Assembly: GCF_044324875.1 (NCBI RefSeq)
Contig: NZ_CP172185.1
Reading direction: 5' to 3' (one strand)
Length of the DNA: 64,000 nt
Source of the DNA: Escherichia coli
Lineage (GTDB): Bacteria; Pseudomonadota; Gammaproteobacteria; Enterobacterales; Enterobacteriaceae
Below are positions 1,683-35,790 of this stretch, piece by piece (position 1 is the stretch's first letter; each line of letters opens with the position of its first letter). The notes beneath the pieces were generated by a model. The model ran no database searches, was not told the DNA's origin, and saw nothing but the letters and a program-made list of their open reading frames with translations. The translations under genes and the position numbers were made by a program.

Positions 1683-1884
1683 TGCAAAATGGCATCTGAA
1701 TCGATCGCAGTTTGGCATTCGAATCGATCATGATTTGGCATCCATCTCCGATCACAGTTTGGCATCACAATCGATCACGATTTGGCATGCTTCCGATCAT
1801 TGATTGGCATCCTGCCAGTCACTCCGGGAATTAACTCTTTTCACCACAGTCTCCATTGCCGTGTTTAAACCAGTGGAGACGTCA

Positions 1885-3450
1885 ATGTCCAGAAAGAGAA
1901 AATCCAGGAGCACTATGGAAACCTGTTTTAAGATCCTTCAGCTCAAGTTCGACAAGAAGCTGACTAACCGTTGTATCGGACTGACGTTACACATCAGCGC
2001 CTCAACCGTTTTTGAGGTTCTTGCCCGCTTCAAAGCCTCTTCTCTGTCATGGCCATTACCTGCTGATATATCCCATGACACGCTGGAGAAACTCATTTTT
2101 CCGCCCAAAGACACCTTTGCATCAGAGCTTGTAATGCCTGACATGTTGTACTTCGATACGGAAATGAGAAAACCAGGTGTGACGCGGCAACTGTTGTGGA
2201 TGGAATACAAGGCACAGGCGGGTAACAAAGCGATGGGATACTCGCACTTCTGCCGTTGCTACCGGGAGTGGAAAAAAACGCGACGTCTCTCCATGCGCCA
2301 GGAGCATCGTGCCGGCGAAAAGCTTTTTATCGACTTCTGTGGTCCTACGGTTCCTGTTATTAATCCGGACACCGGTGAGATACGCCGCGTGGCAATCTTC
2401 GTGGCCGTAATGGGGGCGTCCAACTATACCTACGTTGAAGCGTGCGAAGGTCAGGACATGATGTCATGGTTAAATGCCCACAGCCGTTGCCTGACCTTCC
2501 TGGGCGGCGTACCGAAGCTGCTCATCCCCGATAACCTCAGAAGCGCAGTGAAAAAGGCCGATCGATATGAGCCTGTCATCAACGACAGTTATCAGGCACT
2601 GGCTGAGCACTATGGCACGGTTATCATCCCGGCCCGACCACGCAAACCTAAAGATAAACCAAAAGCAGAAAACGGCGTCCTCATCGTTGAACGATGGCTT
2701 CTTGCCCGCATCCGTAATGAAACCTTCCACACGCTCAGGGCGCTGAATGCGCGCCTTAGGGAGTTACTGACAGACATGAATAACCGGCCAATGAAGGGGT
2801 ACGGCAATCAAACCCGTGCAGAACGCTTCCGCATACTGGATGCGCCAGCACTCTCTCCGCTGCCTCTGGCACCTTATGAATACACGGAATACAAAGCTGT
2901 GAAGGTTGGCCCTGACTACCACGTTGAATATGCCCGTCACTGGTACTCCGTTCCACACGAACTGGTCGGTCAGCGTCTGTCACTGAAGGCGGGGCAGTCG
3001 GTGGTACAGCTCTGGCACAAGGGGCAGTGTGTGGCGCAACATCCGCGCAGCACACATGAATATAAACACACAACCAATCCGCTTCACATGCCAGAGCGCC
3101 ACCGGCAGCACGGGACATGGACACCGGAACGCCTGATCGAGCAGGGAAAACGTACGGGCCCGTCCACAGGCCGGGTGGTTGAATCCATGCTGAAGGCAAA
3201 ACCCCATCCGGAACTGGCTTATCGTGCAGTTCTGGGGCTGCTGGCACTTCAGAAAAAATACGGCCCGGAACGGCTGGAAAAGGCCTGTTACGTTGCCCTG
3301 CACTATAACGCCCCTGACAGACGCTTTATCGACAATCTGCTGCGTCACCATCGGGAGAACCTGGAGCTTCCATTATCCCGCCAGGGCGAACAACATCCGG
3401 CATATGCTTCAGAGCATGAAAACCTGCGTGGTCCGGGCTACTACCACTGA
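1885..3450 (+). CDS. istA: IS21-family transposase IstA
   Basis: ORF track 1804..3450; N-terminal HTH-like region then integrase-fold region; start at ATG 1885 or 1915 is uncertain. Confidence 0.8.
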   Translation: MSRKRKSRSTMETCFKILQLKFDKKLTNRCIGLTLHISASTVFEVLARFKASSLSWPLPADISHDTLEKLIFPPKDTFASELVMPDMLYFDTEMRKPGVTRQLLWMEYKAQAGNKAMGYSHFCRCYREWKKTRRLSMRQEHRAGEKLFIDFCGPTVPVINPDTGEIRRVAIFVAVMGASNYTYVEACEGQDMMSWLNAHSRCLTFLGGVPKLLIPDNLRSAVKKADRYEPVINDSYQALAEHYGTVIIPARPRKPKDKPKAENGVLIVERWLLARIRNETFHTLRALNARLRELLTDMNNRPMKGYGNQTRAERFRILDAPALSPLPLAPYEYTEYKAVKVGPDYHVEYARHWYSVPHELVGQRLSLKAGQSVVQLWHKGQCVAQHPRSTHEYKHTTNPLHMPERHRQHGTWTPERLIEQGKRTGPSTGRVVESMLKAKPHPELAYRAVLGLLALQKKYGPERLEKACYVALHYNAPDRRFIDNLLRHHRENLELPLSRQGEQHPAYASEHENLRGPGYYH

Positions 3451-3466
3451 CAGAAGGAACAACAGT

Positions 3467-4222
3467 ATGAGTGATAACCTGTTAAACAAACTGACCCAAC
3501 TGAAACTCCCGGCGATGGCCGGGAGCCTGATACGGCAGCGGGAAACGCCTCAGACCTACGACGAACTGTCGTTCGAGGAAAGGCTGACGCTGCTGGTTGA
3601 TGACGAGCTTCTGAGCAGGGAAAACAGCCGTGTGGCACGGTTGAGAAAAAATGCCGGCCTGAAATACCAGGCAACACCGGAAGGGCTGCGCTATCCGGCC
3701 TCAAGAGGTCTGCGGGCTGAACAGATGAGAGAACTGCTGAACGGCCACTACATAACCCACAGGAAAAACCTGCTGATAACCGGTCCGACAGGATGTGGCA
3801 AGAGCTGGATAGCCAATGCGCTGGGCGAACAGGCATGTCGACAGAAACACAGCGTCCGGTACTGTAGAACCGGGCGATTACTGGAACAACTGGCTCAGGG
3901 ACGTGTTGATGGCAGCTGGCTGAAATATCTGAAACAGTTGCAAAAAATACAGGTTCTAATCCTGGACGATCTGGGGCTGGAACAGTTAAGTAACGCCCAG
4001 TGTAATGACCTTCTGGAGCTCATAGAGGATCGTTACGGACAAAGCAGCACGATAGTGGTAAGCCAGTTCCCGGTAGATAAATGGCATGGTCTGATGGAGA
4101 ACCCAACAACAGCAGATGCCATCCTGGACAGACTGGTACATAACTCACACCGAGTGGTCCTTCAGGGAGAGTCACTGAGGAAAAATCCCCCGGTAGTGGA
4201 AAGCAGCGAAAAAACGCGTTAA
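3467..4222 (+). CDS. istB: IS21-family helper ATPase IstB
   Basis: Walker A GPTGCGKS and Walker B LILDD motifs; ATG 3467 lies 17 nt after the istA stop; ORF track 3224..4222 is an N-terminally over-extended version. Confidence 0.85.
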   Translation: MSDNLLNKLTQLKLPAMAGSLIRQRETPQTYDELSFEERLTLLVDDELLSRENSRVARLRKNAGLKYQATPEGLRYPASRGLRAEQMRELLNGHYITHRKNLLITGPTGCGKSWIANALGEQACRQKHSVRYCRTGRLLEQLAQGRVDGSWLKYLKQLQKIQVLILDDLGLEQLSNAQCNDLLELIEDRYGQSSTIVVSQFPVDKWHGLMENPTTADAILDRLVHNSHRVVLQGESLRKNPPVVESSEKTR

Positions 4223-7268: not shown

Positions 7269-10184
7269 TTACTGAGTCAGTTTTTTTATCAGGTCGTGAA
7301 TTTTATCACCTGAAAACTGGGTCATGAAAGTTATCTTTATGGATTTACTGATTTGTTCGAAGAGTTTCTGTGCATGTTTTATTTTATCGCGTTCTTCATG
7401 TCTGAGTTCACGTTTGCCATCAACATTTTTGGTTTCAATAATAAGGTTCAGATAATCACCCTTTGACGTGTTTACAACATAAGCGAAGTCAGGGGAGTAA
7501 GTGTATCCTCCCGCTACAGGAATTTTTATTGAATTTTTGGGGATCTTTGTGAAGACAATGACTGACCTGACCTCACCCTCTGTCATATTGAGTTTTTCAA
7601 GTTCTGAATCATAAAATACTTCTTCAAAAAGATAAGAGTCCAGTGGAGGGCTTGTATTATCCTGTAAAACGCCAAGATCACTTGACAATACATCAGCAAG
7701 ATAACCGCCGTCTGCATTGGTGAATTTCGTGGGATGGACAGTTCCTGATATTACATTATACCCAAGGCTGAATTTACTGAACGAGTTATTAAGCAAATAC
7801 TTGCTGAAACCAGATTTAATTTTTCTGATTGTCTGAATGTTAAGGTATTCAGTTATATTTATGATGTCTTTTATATCACAAAAAACCTTATGCATGGTGT
7901 CATGTTTGACAAAAATAGTCTGTGATAATTTATCAAGGAATTCACGATAGCTCATTGTGTTTATTTTGTGAAAATTATCCTCATCAACACTGAGAATGCT
8001 TTTCGACATTGCCGTATCATTATGGATATAAATTCTTTCAATACGAGTATGAGCACCGGATTTGGTAAATCTGTCTGCTTCTTCCAGCATAAACGCTCTG
8101 AAAAGGGATAAAAACTCACGTTCACTTTTTATTTTATACTCAATCACGACCTTTTGATTGATCAAGTCCCATAGTTCTTTCAGCTCACTGAACTTACCAA
8201 CACGCATTTTAGTGCGTCTTTTTCCATCAGAGGCTTTTTTTATTTTGCCTGGTTTCACTCCTGCAGGAAATGCTGCCGGATATCTGGCTTTTAAGCGGCT
8301 ATAGGCATCTGAATCTTTGAAGTTATCATTATCATCAATGATCTCATCATCAAAAATTTCATTCAAGAGTGTTCTGGAGGAAAGCTCCGGATATTGAGAC
8401 AGGATTTTATCCTTAAGTTCCTGAGTAAACTTACCTGGAACAGTCTCTTTGAAAGAACTATCGTTGATCTCTTTGACAAGAGAATCGACAAAATCTTTTT
8501 CTGTAAAATCAACATAATAGTTGAGGGTAAAATTGCGGTCTTTCACACGACACATGTATTCATTCACCGGAAGACGTAAACCACGCCCTACTTCCTGAAG
8601 TTTAGATGTGGTGCTACCGCTCGAACGGAGCTTACAAATCTGAAAGACATTTGGGTTATCCCATCCCTCACGCAACGTCCATTTAGAGAAAATGAAACGG
8701 CGAGGATTTTCTAAAGACAATAGAAGCTCTTTATCATGAAGGATTTCGTTGATTTCCTGCTCAATTTTATCATCTTTATCACTATTATCTTTTGAAAAAT
8801 AACCACCATGAACAGAAGATATATCCTTAACAGTTTTTTCAAGGTAGTTTCTGTAAAACTCATCTTTTTCTGTTTTTAACAGTTCATTTGCTTCTGCCAA
8901 AACGTATTCTTCGAACTTAGTTTTCAGGCTTCCTGCAATATCATTACCATCACGATAGCCTTCAATGTCATCAATGAAGAAAAGAGTAAGAGGTTTTATG
9001 CGTGGCCTTTGTGTCAGATACTCTTTTTCTAACTTAAAGTGTTCTTTGACAGCTTTACGTATCATGTTATCAGCAAGTGTCTGATCGTAAGAATAGGGGT
9101 TTATCGAACTACCAATTTTTAGCTCAATACCATTACTCAACACTGCTGTATTCTTATTTAAAGCATCAAGAGTTAAATCATGGATCGCACTATGCGTCTT
9201 AGATAGTGATTCACCTTTGGCTAACTTAAAAATTTTTTTATTATTATTTTCGTTCAGTTCAAATGTAGCTTCTTTTCCGTCAGATTTGACCAACTTGAGG
9301 TTGGCATTACCATCACCAACTATATCCTCAATGTATGCATCAATACCTTTAACAAGATCTTCATTGAAGGCATCTACGGCTGTAAGACGATAAACTAAGT
9401 TCTTATATCCTTCACTAAAGGTTGCACCATAGCGGATGATATATTGGGCATTAAATTTTTGAATATGTTCCCATGTCTTTTTACCAGTAGGAAATTTATG
9501 AGGCTCATCAATGATAATGAATGGTTTTATCGCACTAAGTGCAGAAAATGGGGTATCAAACTGATTATTAAGCAAGCCAACATCATAAGTGTCAGTTAAA
9601 GACTTAGAGTTAATCATCCCTGAATTGATCACAAGAATGTGTATATATTTCTTATTGAAATTACTTGCTTCAACAAAATCATGGATAGCTTGAGGCATAT
9701 ACGATTTTGTATTTTTACCCGAACGTTTCTGACTTTCAACAACGTAAGTCTTTAGTTCACGCTCGTAATCATCTCGAAAGTGTTCTTTTATAGCATCGCT
9801 TTTTAAAAAGTTAACGGTTCCGGCTTTGATCGATAGGGTAGGAACAATGATGATAAACTTGTTAATACCAAATGATTTGTTCAGGTCAAAAATTGTTTTG
9901 GTGTAAGTATAAGTTTTACCTGTACCTGTCTCCATAGAAACATCAATTACGTTGCTTTTAGCATCGTAATTATCTTTTGAGTGCTCAATACCATTGAACT
10001 CCTGAACATTTTTTATGTTGTTGTAGTATTGTTGTTCAGATAGATTCAGTTCTGGATTAGCTAACAGGCGAATTGCAACATGATCCGTCTGATGAGGTAT
10101 GGCGGATACAAAGACATTCATTACCGAATCAACGCCAGCCTTTTGATGAGGTAAATTTTTTTCGAATGTGAACCCTTTAGACAT
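7269..10184 (-). CDS. res: Type III restriction endonuclease Res subunit (helicase-nuclease)
   Basis: 971 aa; Walker A METGTGKTYT, DExH-like IIIDEPHKF, C-terminal PD-(x)n-ExK-like SPDFAYVV...IIETK; directly downstream of mod with a 2-nt gap; AT-rich. Confidence 0.85.
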   Translation of the reverse strand: MSKGFTFEKNLPHQKAGVDSVMNVFVSAIPHQTDHVAIRLLANPELNLSEQQYYNNIKNVQEFNGIEHSKDNYDAKSNVIDVSMETGTGKTYTYTKTIFDLNKSFGINKFIIIVPTLSIKAGTVNFLKSDAIKEHFRDDYERELKTYVVESQKRSGKNTKSYMPQAIHDFVEASNFNKKYIHILVINSGMINSKSLTDTYDVGLLNNQFDTPFSALSAIKPFIIIDEPHKFPTGKKTWEHIQKFNAQYIIRYGATFSEGYKNLVYRLTAVDAFNEDLVKGIDAYIEDIVGDGNANLKLVKSDGKEATFELNENNNKKIFKLAKGESLSKTHSAIHDLTLDALNKNTAVLSNGIELKIGSSINPYSYDQTLADNMIRKAVKEHFKLEKEYLTQRPRIKPLTLFFIDDIEGYRDGNDIAGSLKTKFEEYVLAEANELLKTEKDEFYRNYLEKTVKDISSVHGGYFSKDNSDKDDKIEQEINEILHDKELLLSLENPRRFIFSKWTLREGWDNPNVFQICKLRSSGSTTSKLQEVGRGLRLPVNEYMCRVKDRNFTLNYYVDFTEKDFVDSLVKEINDSSFKETVPGKFTQELKDKILSQYPELSSRTLLNEIFDDEIIDDNDNFKDSDAYSRLKARYPAAFPAGVKPGKIKKASDGKRRTKMRVGKFSELKELWDLINQKVVIEYKIKSEREFLSLFRAFMLEEADRFTKSGAHTRIERIYIHNDTAMSKSILSVDEDNFHKINTMSYREFLDKLSQTIFVKHDTMHKVFCDIKDIINITEYLNIQTIRKIKSGFSKYLLNNSFSKFSLGYNVISGTVHPTKFTNADGGYLADVLSSDLGVLQDNTSPPLDSYLFEEVFYDSELEKLNMTEGEVRSVIVFTKIPKNSIKIPVAGGYTYSPDFAYVVNTSKGDYLNLIIETKNVDGKRELRHEERDKIKHAQKLFEQISKSIKITFMTQFSGDKIHDLIKKLTQ

Positions 10185-10186
10185 GA

Positions 10187-12223
10187 TTAGTTTCTTACCA
10201 CCAAATCTAAATCAATAGATTTTTTATTAGCATAACTTTTTAGTGCTTCATTGAGTTCCATCTGTTTCGCACTTTCGAAGTTGCTGCCATAAAATACAAC
10301 TTTGTTAGGGGCAAAGTCTTTGTCTGCATCCAGCTTTTGAAGTAAAGCTTTCAAAGCCTCACTTGTGAAATTAGGCGCAATTAGATATAGCCGACCATCG
10401 CACAAGTGTGCTTTGTAGCCATTAAGGTCAATATCTTCAATTGGTGTTGTTAGCAAGCTGCCATCATACACGCACCATGTCGTCAATAGAGTGTCATACT
10501 GCTCTGGTGTCAATACAGCATCGTCAAAGAAACTAAGATTAGAAAGCGTAAGTTCAGACTCATCTTTCACTCGAAAATTATGAACTGTTTCAAATATTTT
10601 AAATCCCAAATCTCCATTATAATTAGGATTATCTTTTTTCAGCTTTTTTCCTGCCTTAATAATTCTGTCTTTTGTTATATTGAAGATGGATTTATACCCT
10701 TCTTTATAGGCTTGTTTCTTTTTATCTGTTTCTTCATCTAATTGAACACAGATGAAGTTTCTTTTCCTGCCGTCTTCAATATTTAACTCCAGAATACCAT
10801 GAGCTGTAGTTCCAGAGCCAGCAAAAAAGTCAAGATAAATGTCTTTATCTTCGGTTTTTACTGAACCAAATAGTGTTTTTATTAAACTTGTTGGCTTCGG
10901 GTAGGAGAAATATCCTTTCCCACCAAAAAGATTTTCAACCTCAACACCACCATCACTTTTAGTTGAAATAATTGATCTTAGTAAAAACTCTTCAACTTCA
11001 TCTAAAAATTTAACCGAACTGGGTTGGGTGTTTTCTGTACTGGCAAACCAAATTCCACCACAAATAACGCTACCATCATGTAGTTTTTTGATATCTGCAT
11101 ACTTTCCATCTATTCTTTTTGCAATATGATTAAAAGTGCCTTCTTTCCAACGCCAGCCTCTGTCTGGGATTTTGACAGGGTTATTAGTCAAAGGGTGCAA
11201 TACTTCATACGTGGGTCCAAATGAATCTGCATTAGGCCAGCTCATATTAATTTTACCCCATGGCCTATAATCTTCGTTCAAACAGTTGTAAAGAGTAATT
11301 CCACGATCATATCCGTTGGAGCTGTAGAATTTTTTGAGTTGCTGCTCTGCTTTATCTAATGGCACCTTCTCCTTTTTTAACTTTTCAATAAACTGATATA
11401 CATCATCAATACCATCTTTCCGCATTAAAAATTCTTTACTTATTTCGTTATTCTTCGCATAAGCAAGGATGTACTCATGGATATTACCAATACCCTTATC
11501 ATTTTTAGGGATACGTTTATTCCATACAATATTTTCTATGAAATTTGCTTCGCCAAAAATTTCATCACAAATAGTTTTAAGTTGATTTAATTCATTTTCG
11601 TCAATCGAAATAAATATCACACCATCTTCACGTAGAAGCTCACGAGCAATATATAAACGAGGATAAATGAACGTTAACCATGCGCTATGGCTGCTTGAAC
11701 CATTCGTGGTAAATTCAAGTATACGTTTAGCCTCATCAAGATCGATACCTGCCAGATCAGAAAGCTGTTCAGGTGTAAACTTGCGATCATCGTTATAGGC
11801 GAATCCATCCTTACCTGTATTGTATGGTGGATCAATGTAAATCATCTTCACCTTTTCAGAGTAAGCATTAACCATATGCTTCAATACTTCGAGGTTATCC
11901 CCTTTGATTAACAGATTCTGACTGTTTTTGTTCTCTTCACGTTGGTTATGGTCTTTATCTTCGGAGAGTAATGTCTTCGGCGGCAAGTTAGCTAACAGAC
12001 GGGCATAGGATTTACCAAGCCAGTTCAGGCTGTATGATTCTTTGGAGAGTTCAACATCCGATGATTTGACGATTTCAAGCAATTTTTCCTGAATGAACGC
12101 TCCATTTTTATCAAAACACTGTGGAAAGTTAGCCTTTAAAATCGCAAGCTGTTTACTGTTTGTGGTTTCAGTTTCAGAGAAAAGAGTTTCTTTTTTCAGT
12201 TGAAATTGGGGTTGTGTATTCAT
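10187..12223 (-). CDS. mod: Type III DNA methyltransferase Mod (N6-adenine)
   Basis: 678 aa; motif IV IYIDPPYNTG before motif I LDFFAGSGTT (beta-class order typical of Type III Mod); strong GGAGG RBS; ATG 12223 overlaps the stop of the upstream leader ORF. Confidence 0.9.
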   Translation of the reverse strand: MNTQPQFQLKKETLFSETETTNSKQLAILKANFPQCFDKNGAFIQEKLLEIVKSSDVELSKESYSLNWLGKSYARLLANLPPKTLLSEDKDHNQREENKNSQNLLIKGDNLEVLKHMVNAYSEKVKMIYIDPPYNTGKDGFAYNDDRKFTPEQLSDLAGIDLDEAKRILEFTTNGSSSHSAWLTFIYPRLYIARELLREDGVIFISIDENELNQLKTICDEIFGEANFIENIVWNKRIPKNDKGIGNIHEYILAYAKNNEISKEFLMRKDGIDDVYQFIEKLKKEKVPLDKAEQQLKKFYSSNGYDRGITLYNCLNEDYRPWGKINMSWPNADSFGPTYEVLHPLTNNPVKIPDRGWRWKEGTFNHIAKRIDGKYADIKKLHDGSVICGGIWFASTENTQPSSVKFLDEVEEFLLRSIISTKSDGGVEVENLFGGKGYFSYPKPTSLIKTLFGSVKTEDKDIYLDFFAGSGTTAHGILELNIEDGRKRNFICVQLDEETDKKKQAYKEGYKSIFNITKDRIIKAGKKLKKDNPNYNGDLGFKIFETVHNFRVKDESELTLSNLSFFDDAVLTPEQYDTLLTTWCVYDGSLLTTPIEDIDLNGYKAHLCDGRLYLIAPNFTSEALKALLQKLDADKDFAPNKVVFYGSNFESAKQMELNEALKSYANKKSIDLDLVVRN

Positions 12224-30810: not shown

Positions 30811-31336
30811 TCATGGCTCCTGTTGCCGGTTTCCGGTCCCGGAAAAACAGGCGACATCAGCAACAAGGGGAAAAACGCGATGTCGCCTGAAAGGTACTGG
30901 TGCAGCGGTGCGTTGTACGGACGCAGGTCCGCACAACCGGAAATACACGGGATGATTCGGTCAGTGTATTTTCGTGTTGTGCGCCTGTACTGATACGGCA
31001 GGGTGTGATGAGTGTTACCTGTGGCTGCAGGCGCGGCACGTCACTCATAACGTAGCATTCTGTTTCCTCCTCAGCCCGGCTTCAGGGCGTTGCCGCAATA
31101 CCCGATTGTTAAAGAGCCTTACCGGCATGGTGTCCGGTGTCACCGCGCGGATAACGATACGGCGGTGTCTGAAGGGATGATGCTGCGGCGCTCTGCACAT
31201 GGCGACGATTAATTCTTTTTGTGTTTCTGAAAATTTATTGCCGGGAAATTTCTGGTGTGACAGGGTGAATTAATTCTGGTCAGCGACGCTCCTGAGAAGG
31301 CAGAGTGCGCTGACATTTCGTGAACGGAGGAATGCC

Positions 31337-32845
31337 ATGTCCCTGAATCCCACCGATGAACAGTCAGCCATCATTCACTGGCAGGGGGAAAAACTGGTGG
31401 TGAATGCCTTTGCCGGTACAGGCAAAACCAGCACACTGGTGCAGTTCGCCGCAGCCTGCCCTGAGAGCCGGATGCTGTATCTGGCCTATAACCGCGCGAT
31501 TCGTGATGAGGCGGAGCGCCGGTTTCCCTTTAATGTGGAGTGCAAAACCTCCCATCAGCTGGCGTATTCGCGGTTCGGAAAGCATTTCCGGCATCGTCTG
31601 GTGCCGGGGCTGTCAGTGACGGATGTAGCGAGAAAACTGAACACCCGCTACTGGACGCTTGCCCGTGTTGCCATGACCGCGCTGAATCAGTTCATCTGTT
31701 CGGCGGACGTGGCGCCCGGAATGCAGCATATGCCGCCTCCCGACGAGATGAAGGGCATGTCGCCACAGGATGCGCTGCGTGCCGTGCAGATCCTCTGGCA
31801 TGAAATGAGCAATCCGGATGGCAATTTTCCGGTCACTCACGACACCTATCTGAAGCTCTATCAGCTTTCCTCACCGGATCTGTCACGCAGGTGGGATACG
31901 ATCCTTTTTGATGAGGCCCAGGATGCGAATCCGGTGACGTCCGCACTGGTGCTGGGGCAGCGGTGCAGGGTGGTACTGGTTGGCGACCGTTACCAGCAGA
32001 TTTATCGTTTTCGTGGTGCCAGCAATGCACTGTCGCATCCGGCACTGAACGGGGCGGACCGTCTCTGGCTGACGCAAAGTTTTCGTTTTGGTCCTGCCGT
32101 GGCCGGGGTGGCCAGCCAGTTACTGAAGCGTGCCGGCGAGAGCCGTGAGGTGACCGGCAGGGGCGGGGATGATGAAGTGCTGACGGCAGGTGAAATGCGT
32201 GCGCGCGTGAAGGCAGGGAAGATGACCGGTCACAGGGCGATACTGAGCCGGACGGTGGCCGGTGTGATTGGCACCGCACTGATGGCGGCAATGCGTGGCA
32301 GGAAGGTTTACTGGGTGGGGGGCATTGAAGGCTACAGAACGGAGGCACTGGAAGATCTTTACTGGTTTCAGATGGATATGCCGGAGCGGATGCACAGTGA
32401 CAGACTGCGGAAGGACTACCGGGGTTTTGACGAGTACCGTCATATTGCGAAGGTGACGAAGGATGTGGAAATGAATCAGTCCATTCGTCTGCTGGAGCTG
32501 TGCTTTCCGCTGCCGAAGAAACTCGAACTTCTCAGAAAGCACACCGTCACGAATGAACAGGAGGCGGATATCACGGTCTCAACGGCACACCGCAGTAAGG
32601 GACTGGAGTGGTCACTGGTGGTACTCGATGATGATTTTCAGGATATCACCGACCCGCTGATAAGCGAGCAGGAGCGGCGGGATGAAACCAATCTGCTCTA
32701 TGTGGCGGTCACCCGGGCGCGCAGAACGCTGGTTCTCAATGAACTCATGCAGCAGCTGACGGAAGCTGCCGGCGATGGTGGTGCACCCGGAAACGCGCCG
32801 GTGCAGGGGAAGGAAGACGATGGTGTGGAGGGAGAGGATGTTTAA
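31337..32845 (+). CDS. UvrD/PcrA-like superfamily 1 helicase (502 aa)
   Basis: Walker A AFAGTGKTS, Walker B/DEAQD, motif VI-like VAVTRARR; RBS GGAGG upstream. Confidence 0.75.
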   Translation: MSLNPTDEQSAIIHWQGEKLVVNAFAGTGKTSTLVQFAAACPESRMLYLAYNRAIRDEAERRFPFNVECKTSHQLAYSRFGKHFRHRLVPGLSVTDVARKLNTRYWTLARVAMTALNQFICSADVAPGMQHMPPPDEMKGMSPQDALRAVQILWHEMSNPDGNFPVTHDTYLKLYQLSSPDLSRRWDTILFDEAQDANPVTSALVLGQRCRVVLVGDRYQQIYRFRGASNALSHPALNGADRLWLTQSFRFGPAVAGVASQLLKRAGESREVTGRGGDDEVLTAGEMRARVKAGKMTGHRAILSRTVAGVIGTALMAAMRGRKVYWVGGIEGYRTEALEDLYWFQMDMPERMHSDRLRKDYRGFDEYRHIAKVTKDVEMNQSIRLLELCFPLPKKLELLRKHTVTNEQEADITVSTAHRSKGLEWSLVVLDDDFQDITDPLISEQERRDETNLLYVAVTRARRTLVLNELMQQLTEAAGDGGAPGNAPVQGKEDDGVEGEDV

Positions 32846-34367
32846 GCGGTTCAGACGTATGCTGCCCGGCACAAAGGGCACGGAGCCTGGCGTGGTCGCG
32901 CCGGTGATACCGGCAGGGTTTTATGCGCCGCTCACGGCAGAGGCACTGTTATCACCAGAGCACAGGGAGCTGAGGCTCAGGCAGGTCTGGGATAACAATC
33001 CGATGCCCCGTGATGTATACGACAGGATGTGCCTTGAACCACTCAGCCGGCTGCTGCTGAACACCCAGAACGTCCCGGCAACACGGGAAGGACGGTGGTC
33101 CCGTGCCGGTGGATTTGGTGATCTGACGGTACTGTACACCACGTATGCCGTTCGTCTGGCAAGAGGGTACATGTTTCCACCGGATGCGACCCCGGAAGAC
33201 CAGGCGGCTCAGGCCGCAGTCTGGCATGCGGTGATTTTCTGGTCAGCGCTGTTTTACCACCTGCCCCTGCTGGCGCACCTTGAGGGGGAACTGCTGAGTG
33301 GGCGGGGCTGGCAGCCAGGAATTTCTGTGCCTGACGAACCTTTCCGTTTCCGGTTCAGGAAGACGGCGCCGCAGGGTACGGAAGCGCAACAACTTGCGGC
33401 CCTGACTGCCGGCACGCTGTTACCGGACGGCGCAACGGCCTGGCTTGTGACGGCGCCGGGCGCACTGCAGAATCTGGCCGGGGCGCTCTGGCATCAGCAT
33501 CCCGGGATGGCGCTGATTCGTGATGTGCTGCAGGAAGCGGCAAGGCAGACAGAGAGTCCGCTGAATACCTGCGCTGTCACTGCGCCGGTTACTGCGGAGG
33601 CTTCAGCAGACATCCGTCCTGCTGACCCGGTGGTGACCGGCAGCACGGACAGTGTGGTGGCAGTCACTGAGGTGCAGCCGGCAGAGGAGGTGAAGACTGA
33701 GAGCGTGCAGACAGAGACTGAAGGTGGTGGTGAGTCCGCCGGGGCGTCAGAGGTGCCGTCCGCACAGCAGGAACTGACGGTTCAGACAGCGCCAGTGGTG
33801 ACGGCAGATGATGAAGCGGTCAGTGCTGCTCCTGCGGATCAGGACACAGCAATGCTGCTGAGTCTTTTTTCAGCAGATGAGTCCGAAACTGCTGAACCTG
33901 AAAACAGTATTAAATCGTCAGCCGATCGGGACGGCCAAAGTGACGTACCGGCAGTACAGGGAGAACAAACCAGCGTTATTTATCCGGAGGGCGAAGCAGA
34001 TACGGAAGAGGTGGATTTTATTACTTGGCTGAAATCGGGGTTGTCATCGGGGATGATTGAAATAAATACACCTTCCGCGAGAGTGCATTGTATTGCGGGG
34101 TATGTTTTTTTGTGTGTCCCGGATATTTTTTATCTGTATCAGAAAATGACGGGAAGCCGTCGTGACCGCAGGAGTGTTCAGGCGTTGTTTGAACGTTCCC
34201 GTATTCACAAAATCCGGGAAGGTGAGCGTTTTTTCAGCCTGCATCTGTATAGTGTACCTGACAGAACAGGGAGTTATAAAGCTGTAAGCGGATATCTGGT
34301 TAAAAGCCGTTATCTGTGTGGTTATAACGCAGTGCCCGGGGACAGTGAATACATTGCTTTTCCATAA
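32838..34367 (+). CDS. hypothetical protein with central acidic low-complexity region (~510 aa)
   Basis: ATG 32838 overlaps the helicase stop (ATGTTTAA); acidic Glu/Asp/Thr/Ala-rich linker roughly 33580..33990; structured C-terminal domain. Confidence 0.5.
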   Translation: MFKRFRRMLPGTKGTEPGVVAPVIPAGFYAPLTAEALLSPEHRELRLRQVWDNNPMPRDVYDRMCLEPLSRLLLNTQNVPATREGRWSRAGGFGDLTVLYTTYAVRLARGYMFPPDATPEDQAAQAAVWHAVIFWSALFYHLPLLAHLEGELLSGRGWQPGISVPDEPFRFRFRKTAPQGTEAQQLAALTAGTLLPDGATAWLVTAPGALQNLAGALWHQHPGMALIRDVLQEAARQTESPLNTCAVTAPVTAEASADIRPADPVVTGSTDSVVAVTEVQPAEEVKTESVQTETEGGGESAGASEVPSAQQELTVQTAPVVTADDEAVSAAPADQDTAMLLSLFSADESETAEPENSIKSSADRDGQSDVPAVQGEQTSVIYPEGEADTEEVDFITWLKSGLSSGMIEINTPSARVHCIAGYVFLCVPDIFYLYQKMTGSRRDRRSVQALFERSRIHKIREGERFFSLHLYSVPDRTGSYKAVSGYLVKSRYLCGYNAVPGDSEYIAFP

Positions 34368-34397: not shown

Positions 34398-35510
34398 ATG
34401 TATTCCCCTATGAAGAAAGATGTCGAAAAAATAACGTGGGAGGAATTACTCTTTGAGTACTTCCTTGAGAAAAATCTTAAACCTGATACTGAACACAGCT
34501 ACCGCAAAGTTGTCCGTCTGTTTGATAAGTTCCTGGGCGGTGATTCCTGGCCCGGCGATGTCACACCGAGAGACATTCAGCGATGGCGACGTCATATGCT
34601 TAAAGATCAGGGGCGTTCAGTAAACACCTGGAATAACAGAGTGTCACATCTCCGACCGCTCCTGGCGCTTGGGATCAAGAAAAAGTGGTTACCACAGACG
34701 GAAAATCCGCTTGATGGCACTTCAGTGCCCGGGGCATCAAAACAGAAAAAAACGCTCACTGATAAAGAGATGGTCAGGATTTACCGTACAGTTCAGGCTT
34801 TTGCTGAAGCTGAGGCCAATAAGATGGTGATCTGTGACAGGCGGCGCAATGCGATGTACCCTGCATGGTACTGGCTGATCGTGCTGGATACGCTGCGCTT
34901 CACGGGGATGCGTTTTAACCAGCTGAAACATATCAGGCTGAAGGATATTCATGAGGATGAGGCGGTGATTACCCTTCAGCTGGAAGGGAGTAAAACCCGA
35001 CGTGAATGGCGTGTGCCGATTGTGGAATCGTTACGACTTTCACTGAAACATCTTATTGAGTGCGCCCGTGTCAATGGTGCGTCGGATAATGACTATCTCT
35101 TTGATGTCTGCCTGTACAGCGAGCATTACAGTCCCGGGAAATACCAGTACTGTGCCAAAAGAGCGCATCAGTCGGTCAAATCTTTTTTCCGCAGACTGAG
35201 CCGTGAATGTGGTTTTTTTGTCTCGTCACACAGATTCAGACACACACTGGCAACAAAGCTGATGGCGGCACCGGAGCGTAATCTGCACATGGTCAAATCC
35301 ATTCTGGGGCACAGGAGTGTTGCCACCACCATGGAGTATATTGATTTTTCGGTGGAAGTTGCTGCTGAGGCACTGGAGGCTGAACTCGGTTTATCCACGG
35401 ATGAGGCGACAAAAAGACGGATTAAAGAGGCGAAAAAACGCCGTGAGGCCAGTACCGGGAAAAAGGAAAAACAGGAAAGTTCTGGAGGGGAACTTTCTGA
35501 CAAGGAATAA
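34398..35510 (+). CDS. int: tyrosine recombinase / integrase
   Basis: R...HxxR...Y catalytic pattern (HRFRHTLAT, LGHRSVATTMEYI); ~200 bp from the tRNA 3' end; start at 34398 or 34410. Confidence 0.85.
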   Translation: MYSPMKKDVEKITWEELLFEYFLEKNLKPDTEHSYRKVVRLFDKFLGGDSWPGDVTPRDIQRWRRHMLKDQGRSVNTWNNRVSHLRPLLALGIKKKWLPQTENPLDGTSVPGASKQKKTLTDKEMVRIYRTVQAFAEAEANKMVICDRRRNAMYPAWYWLIVLDTLRFTGMRFNQLKHIRLKDIHEDEAVITLQLEGSKTRREWRVPIVESLRLSLKHLIECARVNGASDNDYLFDVCLYSEHYSPGKYQYCAKRAHQSVKSFFRRLSRECGFFVSSHRFRHTLATKLMAAPERNLHMVKSILGHRSVATTMEYIDFSVEVAAEALEAELGLSTDEATKRRIKEAKKRREASTGKKEKQESSGGELSDKE

Positions 35511-35714: not shown

Positions 35715-35790
35715 TGGTGCCCGGAGGCGGAATCGAACCACCGACACGGGGATTTTCAATCCCCTGCTCTACCGACTGAGCTATCCGGGC
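35715..35790 (-). tRNA. pheV: tRNA-Phe (GAA), pheV-type, with variant T-stem
   Basis: 76-nt cloverleaf GCCCGGATAGCTCAGTCGGTAGAGCAGGGGATTGAAAATCCCCGTGTCGGTGGTTCGATTCCGCCTCCGGGCACCA; anticodon GAA; located beside yqgA. Confidence 0.9.

Follow-up and report, generated by a model that had tools for sequence, protein, structure and literature searches.

An overlapping helicase-traI gene pair

The 64,000-nucleotide (nt) stretch of Escherichia coli DNA analyzed here (from contig NZ_CP172185.1; referred to below as the window) includes the tRNA-Phe end of a predicted integrative and conjugative element (ICE), where two overlapping genes on the plus strand code for a superfamily 1A (SF1A) UvrD-like helicase (31337..32845; 502 amino acids) and a homologue of MOBH-family relaxases (32838..34367; 509 amino acids), called below the TraI-like protein. 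The pair probably serves DNA processing in conjugation, even though the TraI-like protein lacks the canonical catalytic residues of its family. Its ATG stands at 32838 and the helicase TAA at 32843-32845, so that the genes share 8 nt on the plus strand (32838..32845), ATGTTTAA, with GGAGGGAGAGG immediately before this overlap; a GGAGG is found 8 nt 5' of the helicase ATG. An earlier note on this DNA, made by a model from the letters and a list of open reading frames (ORFs), had described the two overlapping ORFs and proposed that they are cotranslated. The coordinates and the overlap are confirmed, and both gene starts are identical to those annotated by RefSeq in 100%-identical E. coli genomes, where the protein identical to the relaxase homologue is labeled "TraI domain-containing protein." In relatives, the helicase/TraI junction is most commonly a 7-nt overlap (11 loci), and in SGI-4 (genomic island 4 of Salmonella) it is one of 4 nt, ATGA. 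Because stop/start overlaps of 4 to 8 nt recur in related loci, the proposal of cotranslation is supported, implying that the helicase and TraI-like genes are translationally coupled. We also observed two database ORFs in which parts of the pair are joined: P0089 consists of helicase residues 1-33 joined to TraI, and P0142 has the C terminus of the helicase followed by the N-terminal domain of TraI. Rather than natural fusions, such joins are likely to be products of a deletion or frameshift at the junction where the genes overlap.

Domain architecture of the TraI-like protein

Profile searches with the TraI-like protein recovered the Pfam domains TraI_2 (PF07514; residues 30-229; E = 2.2e-16) and TraI_2_C (PF07515; residues 393-505; E = 2.1e-15), and the protein also scores above the cutoff of TIGR03760, the model for relaxases of PFGI-1-class ICEs (193.1 bits, with the cutoff at 161.4, covering positions 2-213 of the model's 218). 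An AlphaFold2 model made from 71 homologues divides it into three parts, namely, an N-terminal TraI_2 domain (32910..33572, plus strand; residues 25-245) in which a fold of the HD superfamily is kept, an acidic disordered linker (33573..34004, plus strand; residues ~246-389), and a C-terminal TraI_2_C winged-helix domain (34005..34364, plus strand; residues 390-509). The predicted local distance difference test (pLDDT) score is above 94 at residues ~25-245, below 50 at ~250-388, and above 90 at ~390-509. With its limits set at residues 243-392 (150 amino acids), the linker has an isoelectric point (pI) of 4.05 and contains 32 aspartates and glutamates versus 4 lysines and arginines; the C-terminal domain is basic (pI 9.4). 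The latter matches structure 2ipq in the PDB (STY4665 from Salmonella pathogenicity island 7 [SPI-7]) both by sequence (E = 7.7e-19) and in a Foldseek comparison (template modeling [TM] score of 0.90), and Foldseek further relates it to TcpK (5vfx), a winged-helix protein that binds the origin of transfer (oriT). For the N-terminal domain, the Foldseek matches are HD-superfamily folds, i.e., the exonuclease YhaM and catalytic domains of phosphodiesterases, and for the fold as a whole the match is 3kq5, a two-domain homologue from Coxiella.

In the published architecture of MOBH relaxases, a disordered middle region separates the relaxase domain from a TraI_2_C domain (PMC6736028), the latter of which has been reported to be a four-stranded winged helix (PMC5862659). 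TraI_2, a disordered middle, and TraI_2_C are all present in the protein from the window. By its profile and fold matches, the TraI-like protein is a MOBH-family relaxase homologue. The earlier note had made out a folded N-terminal part, an acidic linker of roughly 130 residues (33580..33990), and a compact C-terminal domain loosely recalling MobH-type ICE relaxases, and had proposed profile searches and a structure prediction as checks. The model confirms the three parts, the linker span fits residues 243-392, and the resemblance to MobH-type relaxases is substantiated by the two Pfam domains and TIGR03760; the TraI_2, TraI_2_C, and UvrD profiles all find their targets, and the C-terminal domain is predicted to be the winged helix described above. 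That note had left the second protein unassigned and held that clear profile hits of both proteins to a known replication or conjugation function, together with conserved synteny, would refute its reading; this is essentially what we found. Five close TraI homologues are named "heavy metal resistance protein CzcA" in databases, which looks like a propagated misannotation.

Loss of catalytic residues under purifying selection

A HMMER scan of 1.84 billion representative proteins yielded 260 clusters related to the N-terminal domain, and the query was aligned with 87 representatives of at least 380 amino acids (88 sequences in all). The sequences fall into two classes. The canonical class (26 of 88) displays PASE(S/N)HHH...GGMLDHxLE in the 3H region and AALLHD(I/V)GK in the HD region; the motif-less class, to which the query belongs (62 of 88), displays VPAxxxGxWS...GGFGDLTL and SALFYHLP-LL. 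About 30 noncatalytic scaffold residues are common to the two. Relative to the canonical sequences, the query carries the substitutions S82T, E83R, H85G, H86R, H87W, H96L, E99L, R108A, H140Y, D141H, a gap in place of the lysine, D147H, Y179Q, H183A, D235A, and S238T. The alternative 3H motif is absent, with T-R-E-G-R-W standing where the canonical proteins have S (frequency of 1.0), E (0.96), any residue, and three histidines (1.0). The metal ligands of the HD motif (H...HD...K...H...D) are replaced by L96, Y140, H141, a gap, A183, and A235, and Q179 stands at the position of Y212 (a tyrosine in canonical proteins, frequency of 0.92), which is thus neither Tyr nor His; the equivalent of Y201 is F169. 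The residue numbers Y201, Y212, and D267 are those of TraI from the gonococcal genetic island (GGI), whose 3H, HD, Y212/H215, and D267 residues are essential for cleavage or metal binding (PMC6736028), and the query positions were equated with them (e.g., 235 with D267) from the order of motifs via family representatives. The column-by-column alignment bears out at the residue level the earlier remark that no HD motif is visible. A motif-less branch of MOBH relaxases is already documented (PMC6736028). The query combines TraI_2 and TraI_2_C with the absence of both 3H and HD, and these motif patterns, along with the matches to 2ipq and 3kq5, point to its membership in the motif-less MOBH3/PFL_4751-like clade.

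Ratios of nonsynonymous to synonymous substitution rates (dN/dS) were computed pairwise across enterobacterial loci by the NG86 method, using pairs with a dS of 0.1 to 1.5. The median is 0.10 for the N-terminal domain of TraI, 0.45 for the linker, 0.12 for the C-terminal domain, and 0.10 for the helicase. Purifying selection constrains the motif-less N-terminal domain as strongly as an intact enzyme.

An FBH1-like helicase

The Pfam domains UvrD-helicase, UvrD_C, and AAA_19 are found in the product of the first gene, and its SF1 motifs are all intact (AGTGKT at residue 26, DEAQD at 192, GDRYQQIY at 216, SFRFG at 248, TAHRSKGLE at 416, and VAVTRA at 456). With Walker A, Walker B (DEAQD), and motifs III to VI in place, its previous designation as a UvrD-like SF1 helicase holds, specifically within SF1A. 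Its best match in the PDB is F-box DNA helicase 1 (FBH1; 9xzj; E = 1.9e-57), to which it is 35.4% identical over 463 aligned residues that take in the entire helicase core; UvrD, PcrA, and Rep in solved structures reach only ~1e-5. On these comparisons, we place the helicase in an FBH1-like subfamily, whose closest relative among solved structures is eukaryotic FBH1. The closeness of the ICE helicase to FBH1 raises the question of a specific common ancestry of the FBH1 core and the mobile-element subfamily.

Searches with tblastn located this subfamily on 1,872 plasmid records, most of them conjugative. Its contexts were inspected in a small sample of five records, in which every record with both the helicase and a relaxase call is of the MOBH type. 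On IncC plasmids, the helicase is the backbone gene "uvrD," located between ter/kfrA and traFHG; the complete IncC plasmid sampled is typed MOBH, and the other, of 64 kb, is without relaxase typing. Citrobacter and Proteus plasmids typed MOBH carry it 1.7 to 2 kb from the mobH gene, and in a Pseudomonas element with a type G mating-pair formation (MPF-G) system it comes after traD. Small as it is, the sample suggests that MOBH-type conjugative systems generally carry the subfamily as an accessory. MOBH relaxases, to our knowledge, do not themselves include a helicase domain. Among the papers searched, none ties FBH1 or UvrD-like helicases to MOBH systems.

Conservation of gene order

Gene order was classified by script at 54 distinct loci, taken from contig look-ups and from genomes representing species, whose scan gave 48 loci; the query of the genome scan was the alignment of the motif-less clade only. 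The helicase lies directly upstream of the TraI_2 gene in 28 of the 38 informative fully motif-less loci, in none of 3 intermediates that retain only the HD motif, and in none of 8 canonical loci (Fisher's exact test, P = 1.7e-4, ignoring the relatedness of loci). In one of the ten motif-less exceptions, the helicase is 3.6 kb upstream. Helicase-adjacent loci are closer to the query, with mostly 32 to 42% full-length identity, and most of the motif-less loci that lack the helicase show 26 to 29%; the helicase-less exceptions at 35 to 48% come from Pectobacterium (two loci), Serratia (one locus), and Xenorhabdus (two truncated genes). The coupling of helicase and traI in this order is therefore a feature specific to one subclade; it does not coincide with the loss of the motifs. 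Downstream, an integrase is found within 1.5 kb of the TraI_2 gene at 44 of the 54 loci, and intact ORFs of the pair are present in about 40 species-level loci.

We considered whether the gain of the helicase compensates for the catalytic loss. This idea is weakened by the motif-less subclades that lack the helicase (10 of 38) and by the HD-only intermediates that also lack it, and further by the presence of the same helicase subfamily in IncC and other plasmids with canonical MobH relaxases. Only the adjacent gene order is clade specific.

At loci L004/L005 and on a Pantoea plasmid (L065), the pair is followed by a replication module of DnaB-PI, ParB, and DUF2857, with no integrase there. Such an order is what one expects of this element family in a circular form resembling a plasmid.

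The element and its attachment site

Immediately downstream of the pair is a gene for a tyrosine recombinase, the ICE integrase (34398..35510, plus strand; Xer-type by NCBIfam; RefSeq start equivalent to 34410), and beyond it ARAGORN predicts a tRNA-Phe gene (35715..35790, minus strand). The latter is followed by yqgA and speC, and the attachment site is therefore pheV. The content of the element was read from the annotation of a 99.4%-identical genome, TUM1886, in which the helicase, TraI, and Int genes close an element of about 85 kb at pheV. It codes for ParA, an SPI-7-type DnaB-PI, ParB, replication proteins of the STY4528 and STY4534 families, topoisomerase III, a single-stranded DNA-binding protein (SSB), TraD, a full MPF-G secretion system (ICE proteins of the TIGR037xx series), and a type IVb pilus operon with a shufflon. 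By this gene content, the element is an ICE of the SPI-7/SGI-4/ICEEc2 type within the PAPI/pKLC102 superfamily. The PGAP annotation of the whole TUM1886 element contains no second relaxase, and none emerged when nine ORFs of the window lacking an assignment were scanned with NCBIfam models, which turned up only IS21 genes, a shufflon recombinase, and hypothetical proteins.

The helicase-TraI-Int module, which the window and TUM1886 have at pheV, is found with 100% identity at pheU, beside dicD and dsbD, in the avian pathogenic E. coli (APEC) O2:K1:H5 strain E19035. Its presence at both sites suggests recent mobility. Two genomes have two places that match the query module. The circular form of SGI-4, pSGI4, carries the same helicase-TraI_2-Int module, and its TraI is likewise motif-less; SGI-4 has been shown experimentally to excise, circularize, and conjugate, with no oriT found (PMC6543542). 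ICEs at pheV and pheU that are cited as being of the Roche-2010 (ICEEc2) type transfer themselves and also bring about Hfr-like (high-frequency recombination) chromosome transfer (PMC13127887); these elements may have the same TraI. Like them, the element in the window may be self-transferable. A relative, ICEKp2, excises and did not self-transfer. MOB-suite, as reported through PLSDB, types 17 of 24 plasmid records with this TraI homologue as nonmobilizable, although these have MPF genes; pSGI4 and the Pantoea plasmid are typed in this way.

Upstream of the pair, an inverted-repeat search and DNA folding revealed an imperfect hairpin with a stem of about 23 bp (30924..30987; free energy of -20 kcal/mol; z = -5.07; none of 200 shuffles equally stable) in the 526-nt intergenic region between the divergent DUF1187/pil operon and the helicase operon. 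It may be an operator or an oriT-like element. The earlier suggestion to look for an oriT-like inverted repeat here is thus answered in part: a stable hairpin exists near the helicase gene, but a crude scan of related loci found no equivalent inverted repeat conserved at the same place.

Further variation was seen along the element. The TraI gene has a mosaic structure: AR_0089, like about 25 further E. coli genomes, matches the window at 99.85% through the helicase and the N-terminal domain up to about 33897, in the linker, and from there to the tRNA-Phe gene (35714) the genomes of the AR_0089 type have an unrelated TraI C-terminal domain and integrase allele. It appears that winged-helix domain and integrase were swapped together as a unit. 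Farther away, ORFs for an IS21-family transposase and its IstB helper ATPase lie at 1804..4222 (NCBIfam scores of 284 and 257 bits); the corresponding region of the TUM1886 ICE has no IS21-family gene annotated, and the insertion may be strain specific. A type III restriction-modification pair occupies 7269..12223 on the minus strand, with an intact res ORF of 971 amino acids whose TUM1886 counterpart is annotated as frameshifted.

A predicted DNA-processing module for conjugation

We consider it probable that the pair, located where the integrase closes an SPI-7/SGI-4/ICEEc2-type ICE in tRNA-Phe, is the module that processes DNA for conjugation. This reading draws on the family assignment, the ICE context without another relaxase, the conserved gene order, and the purifying selection, as well as on the conjugation of SGI-4 with the same motif-less module and the occurrence of the helicase subfamily in MOBH-type transfer regions. 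In the scenario that we propose, the TraI-like protein would, after excision of the element, recognize the transfer origin via its basic winged-helix C-terminal domain and its degenerate HD-fold N-terminal domain and recruit the cotranslated helicase, which would unwind the strand to be transferred, a step for which MOBH relaxases have no domain of their own; the complex would then be passed to the TraD coupling protein and on to the MPF-G secretion system. The nick itself might come either from an as yet undescribed active site of the TraI-like protein or from a different enzyme recruited by it.

Several observations weigh against this proposal. The TraI_2 match covers only model positions 4-216 of 324, with the last third of the model missing, and the score of 74.7 bits against the NCBIfam MobH equivalog model NF041494 is well short of its cutoff of 200. 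In the query, all 16 positions that are at least 92% conserved in the 26 canonical representatives are substituted. MOB-suite recognizes no relaxase on pSGI4 or on the Pantoea plasmid carrying the pair, and no oriT was identified here, nor has one been in SGI-4 or ICEKp2. Finally, Heilers et al. remarked that MOBH3 proteins may "have an alternative function" (PMC6736028).

How the DNA is nicked in such a module can be read in two ways. In one, the TraI-like protein remains a genuine relaxase that nicks oriT with a replacement active site, for which H141, E149/E151, and D95, conserved within the helicase-linked subclade, are candidates, and the helicase unwinds from the nick. This is a serious possibility to which we give well under an even chance. 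It would explain why the only relaxase-like gene of transfer-proficient elements has an N-terminal domain that retains the HD fold under strong purifying selection, and it can call on H141, which hardly varies within that subclade, and on E151 and R106, which are conserved in a clade-specific manner. However, the known metal ligands and the equivalents of Y212/H215 are all gone, the highly conserved Y201 of GGI TraI is a phenylalanine in the query, the clade-specific conserved polar residues are few, and a replacement site would be without biochemical precedent. In the other, which we slightly favor, the TraI-like protein is noncatalytic and another enzyme makes the nick. The broadest form of the proposal is that transfer-proficient enterobacterial ICEs of the SPI-7, SGI-4, ICEEc2, and HAI2 types dispense with a canonical relaxase active site in starting DNA processing, with their sole relaxase homologue being a catalytically dead but strongly conserved protein for origin recognition and as an adaptor, translationally coupled to an FBH1-like helicase, and with the nick coming from a new active site or from a recruited enzyme, e.g., the adjacent tyrosine recombinase or the topoisomerase III of the ICE. 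We put this forward tentatively, as a generalization that could well fail.

The affinity of the helicase to FBH1, an anti-recombinase to which it is far nearer than to UvrD, PcrA, or Rep, opens a different explanation, in which the pair is an anti-recombination or establishment device: the helicase would strip RecA from single-stranded ICE DNA or from the excised circle, a dead TraI-like protein would target it to ICE DNA, and nicking and transfer would be left to other genes. The lost catalytic residues and the alternative function proposed for MOBH3 proteins agree with this explanation, which we nevertheless regard as unlikely, given that the element has no other recognizable relaxase, that the helicase is found within the transfer gene clusters of MOBH elements, and that similarity to FBH1 at the family level does not establish the same cellular function. 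That the two genes are functionless, decaying remnants of a former relaxase module in a domesticated island is very improbable. Loss of the motifs, truncated or frameshifted genes at six related loci, and the failure of ICEKp2 to transfer itself after excision would fit such decay, but the dN/dS of about 0.1 that the helicase and the two folded domains show across Enterobacterales, the intact ORFs in other species, the transfer of SGI-4, and the identical module at two tRNA-Phe sites would not. The phage-defense function that the earlier note offered as an alternative, i.e., a Gabija-like or other helicase-partner system carried as ICE cargo (ICEs often house defense islands), can be rejected as the least plausible of all, since PADLOC returns only generic, fragmentary GajB hits for the helicase (at most 68 bits; best, 67.6), weaker than its FBH1 match, no GajA OLD-family nuclease partner is present, the TraI-like protein has no PADLOC hit yet has clear TraI_2 and TraI_2_C matches, and the pair occupies not a variable cargo slot but a conserved backbone place in the order helicase-traI-int, where a complete ICE ends.

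Novelty and implications

RefSeq or the literature already covers the type of element, the annotation of both genes, and the lack of motifs in this relaxase branch. What seems not to have been stated before is the full residue-by-residue loss together with strong purifying selection in transfer-proficient elements, and likewise the clade-specific coupling to a helicase and the assignment of the latter to an FBH1-like subfamily seen in MOBH-type transfer regions. ICEs of this kind spread genes for capsule, virulence, and resistance to copper, silver, and arsenic in E. coli, Salmonella, Klebsiella, and plant pathogens, and they can drive Hfr-like chromosome transfer. Since the relaxase typing of MOB-suite calls replicons with the module nonmobilizable, mobility surveys probably undercount the element family. 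If the relaxase homologue is truly catalytically dead, the nicking step is left unexplained across a large family of ICEs. The helicase subfamily provides a lead on DNA unwinding in MOBH systems and on the ancestry of FBH1.

Comparison with known systems

The nearest counterparts are SGI-4 of Salmonella Typhimurium ST34, where the pair corresponds to ORF85/ORF86 (PMC6543542), ICEEc2, and ICEKp2, all of which have the same helicase-TraI_2-integrase module at the tRNA-Phe end of an ICE with ParA, DnaB-PI, TraD, and MPF-G. The SGI-4 proteins differ from those of the window in sequence (39% identity for TraI and 66% for the helicase), and the cargo is not the same; ICEEc2 is likened to the element in the window by type. 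STY4665 of SPI-7 (2ipq) and Coxiella 3kq5 resemble the TraI-like protein in missing both metal-binding motifs, with 2ipq matching its C-terminal domain and 3kq5 its fold, and STY4665 is likewise located in an SPI-7-type ICE. The protein from the window nevertheless represents a distinct lineage, with a C-terminal domain only about 36% identical to 2ipq.

GGI TraI of Neisseria gonorrhoeae, the prototype of MOBH, has the same order of TraI_2, a long disordered region, and TraI_2_C and shares the scaffold residues Q77, P80, GG91-92, D95, P114, E120, Q122, W129, W158, R170-R172, and W202 (query numbering). In contrast to it, the TraI-like protein is without equivalents of the 3H, HD, Y212/H215, and D267 residues, its TraI_2 domain is about 100 residues shorter, and the long N-terminal extension is not seen.

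On the side of the helicase, the ICE protein and FBH1 have blocks in common that go beyond the universal SF1 motifs. The match spans only residues 370-873 of FBH1, and the ICE helicase has neither an F-box (by Pfam) nor the N-terminal extension, with its core starting at about residue 5; it also sits on a bacterial mobile element, and displacement of RecA/RAD51 is not implied by the similarity. The "uvrD" of IncC (IncA/C2) plasmids is of the same subfamily (51% full-length identity) and belongs to a MOBH-type transfer region, but it is placed between kfrA and traF and is not adjacent to the relaxase gene; moreover, the TraI of IncC is a MOBH1 enzyme of the canonical kind, with its motifs present. 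A functional parallel to the proposed division of labor may be seen in ICEBs1, whose relaxase NicK has no helicase domain and reportedly needs the separate SF1A helicase PcrA, plus HelP, with PcrA said to unwind the DNA for both transfer and rolling-circle replication. NicK differs in being of the MOBT family and in relying on a host-encoded helicase, and the analogy with the ICE pair is one of mechanism only.

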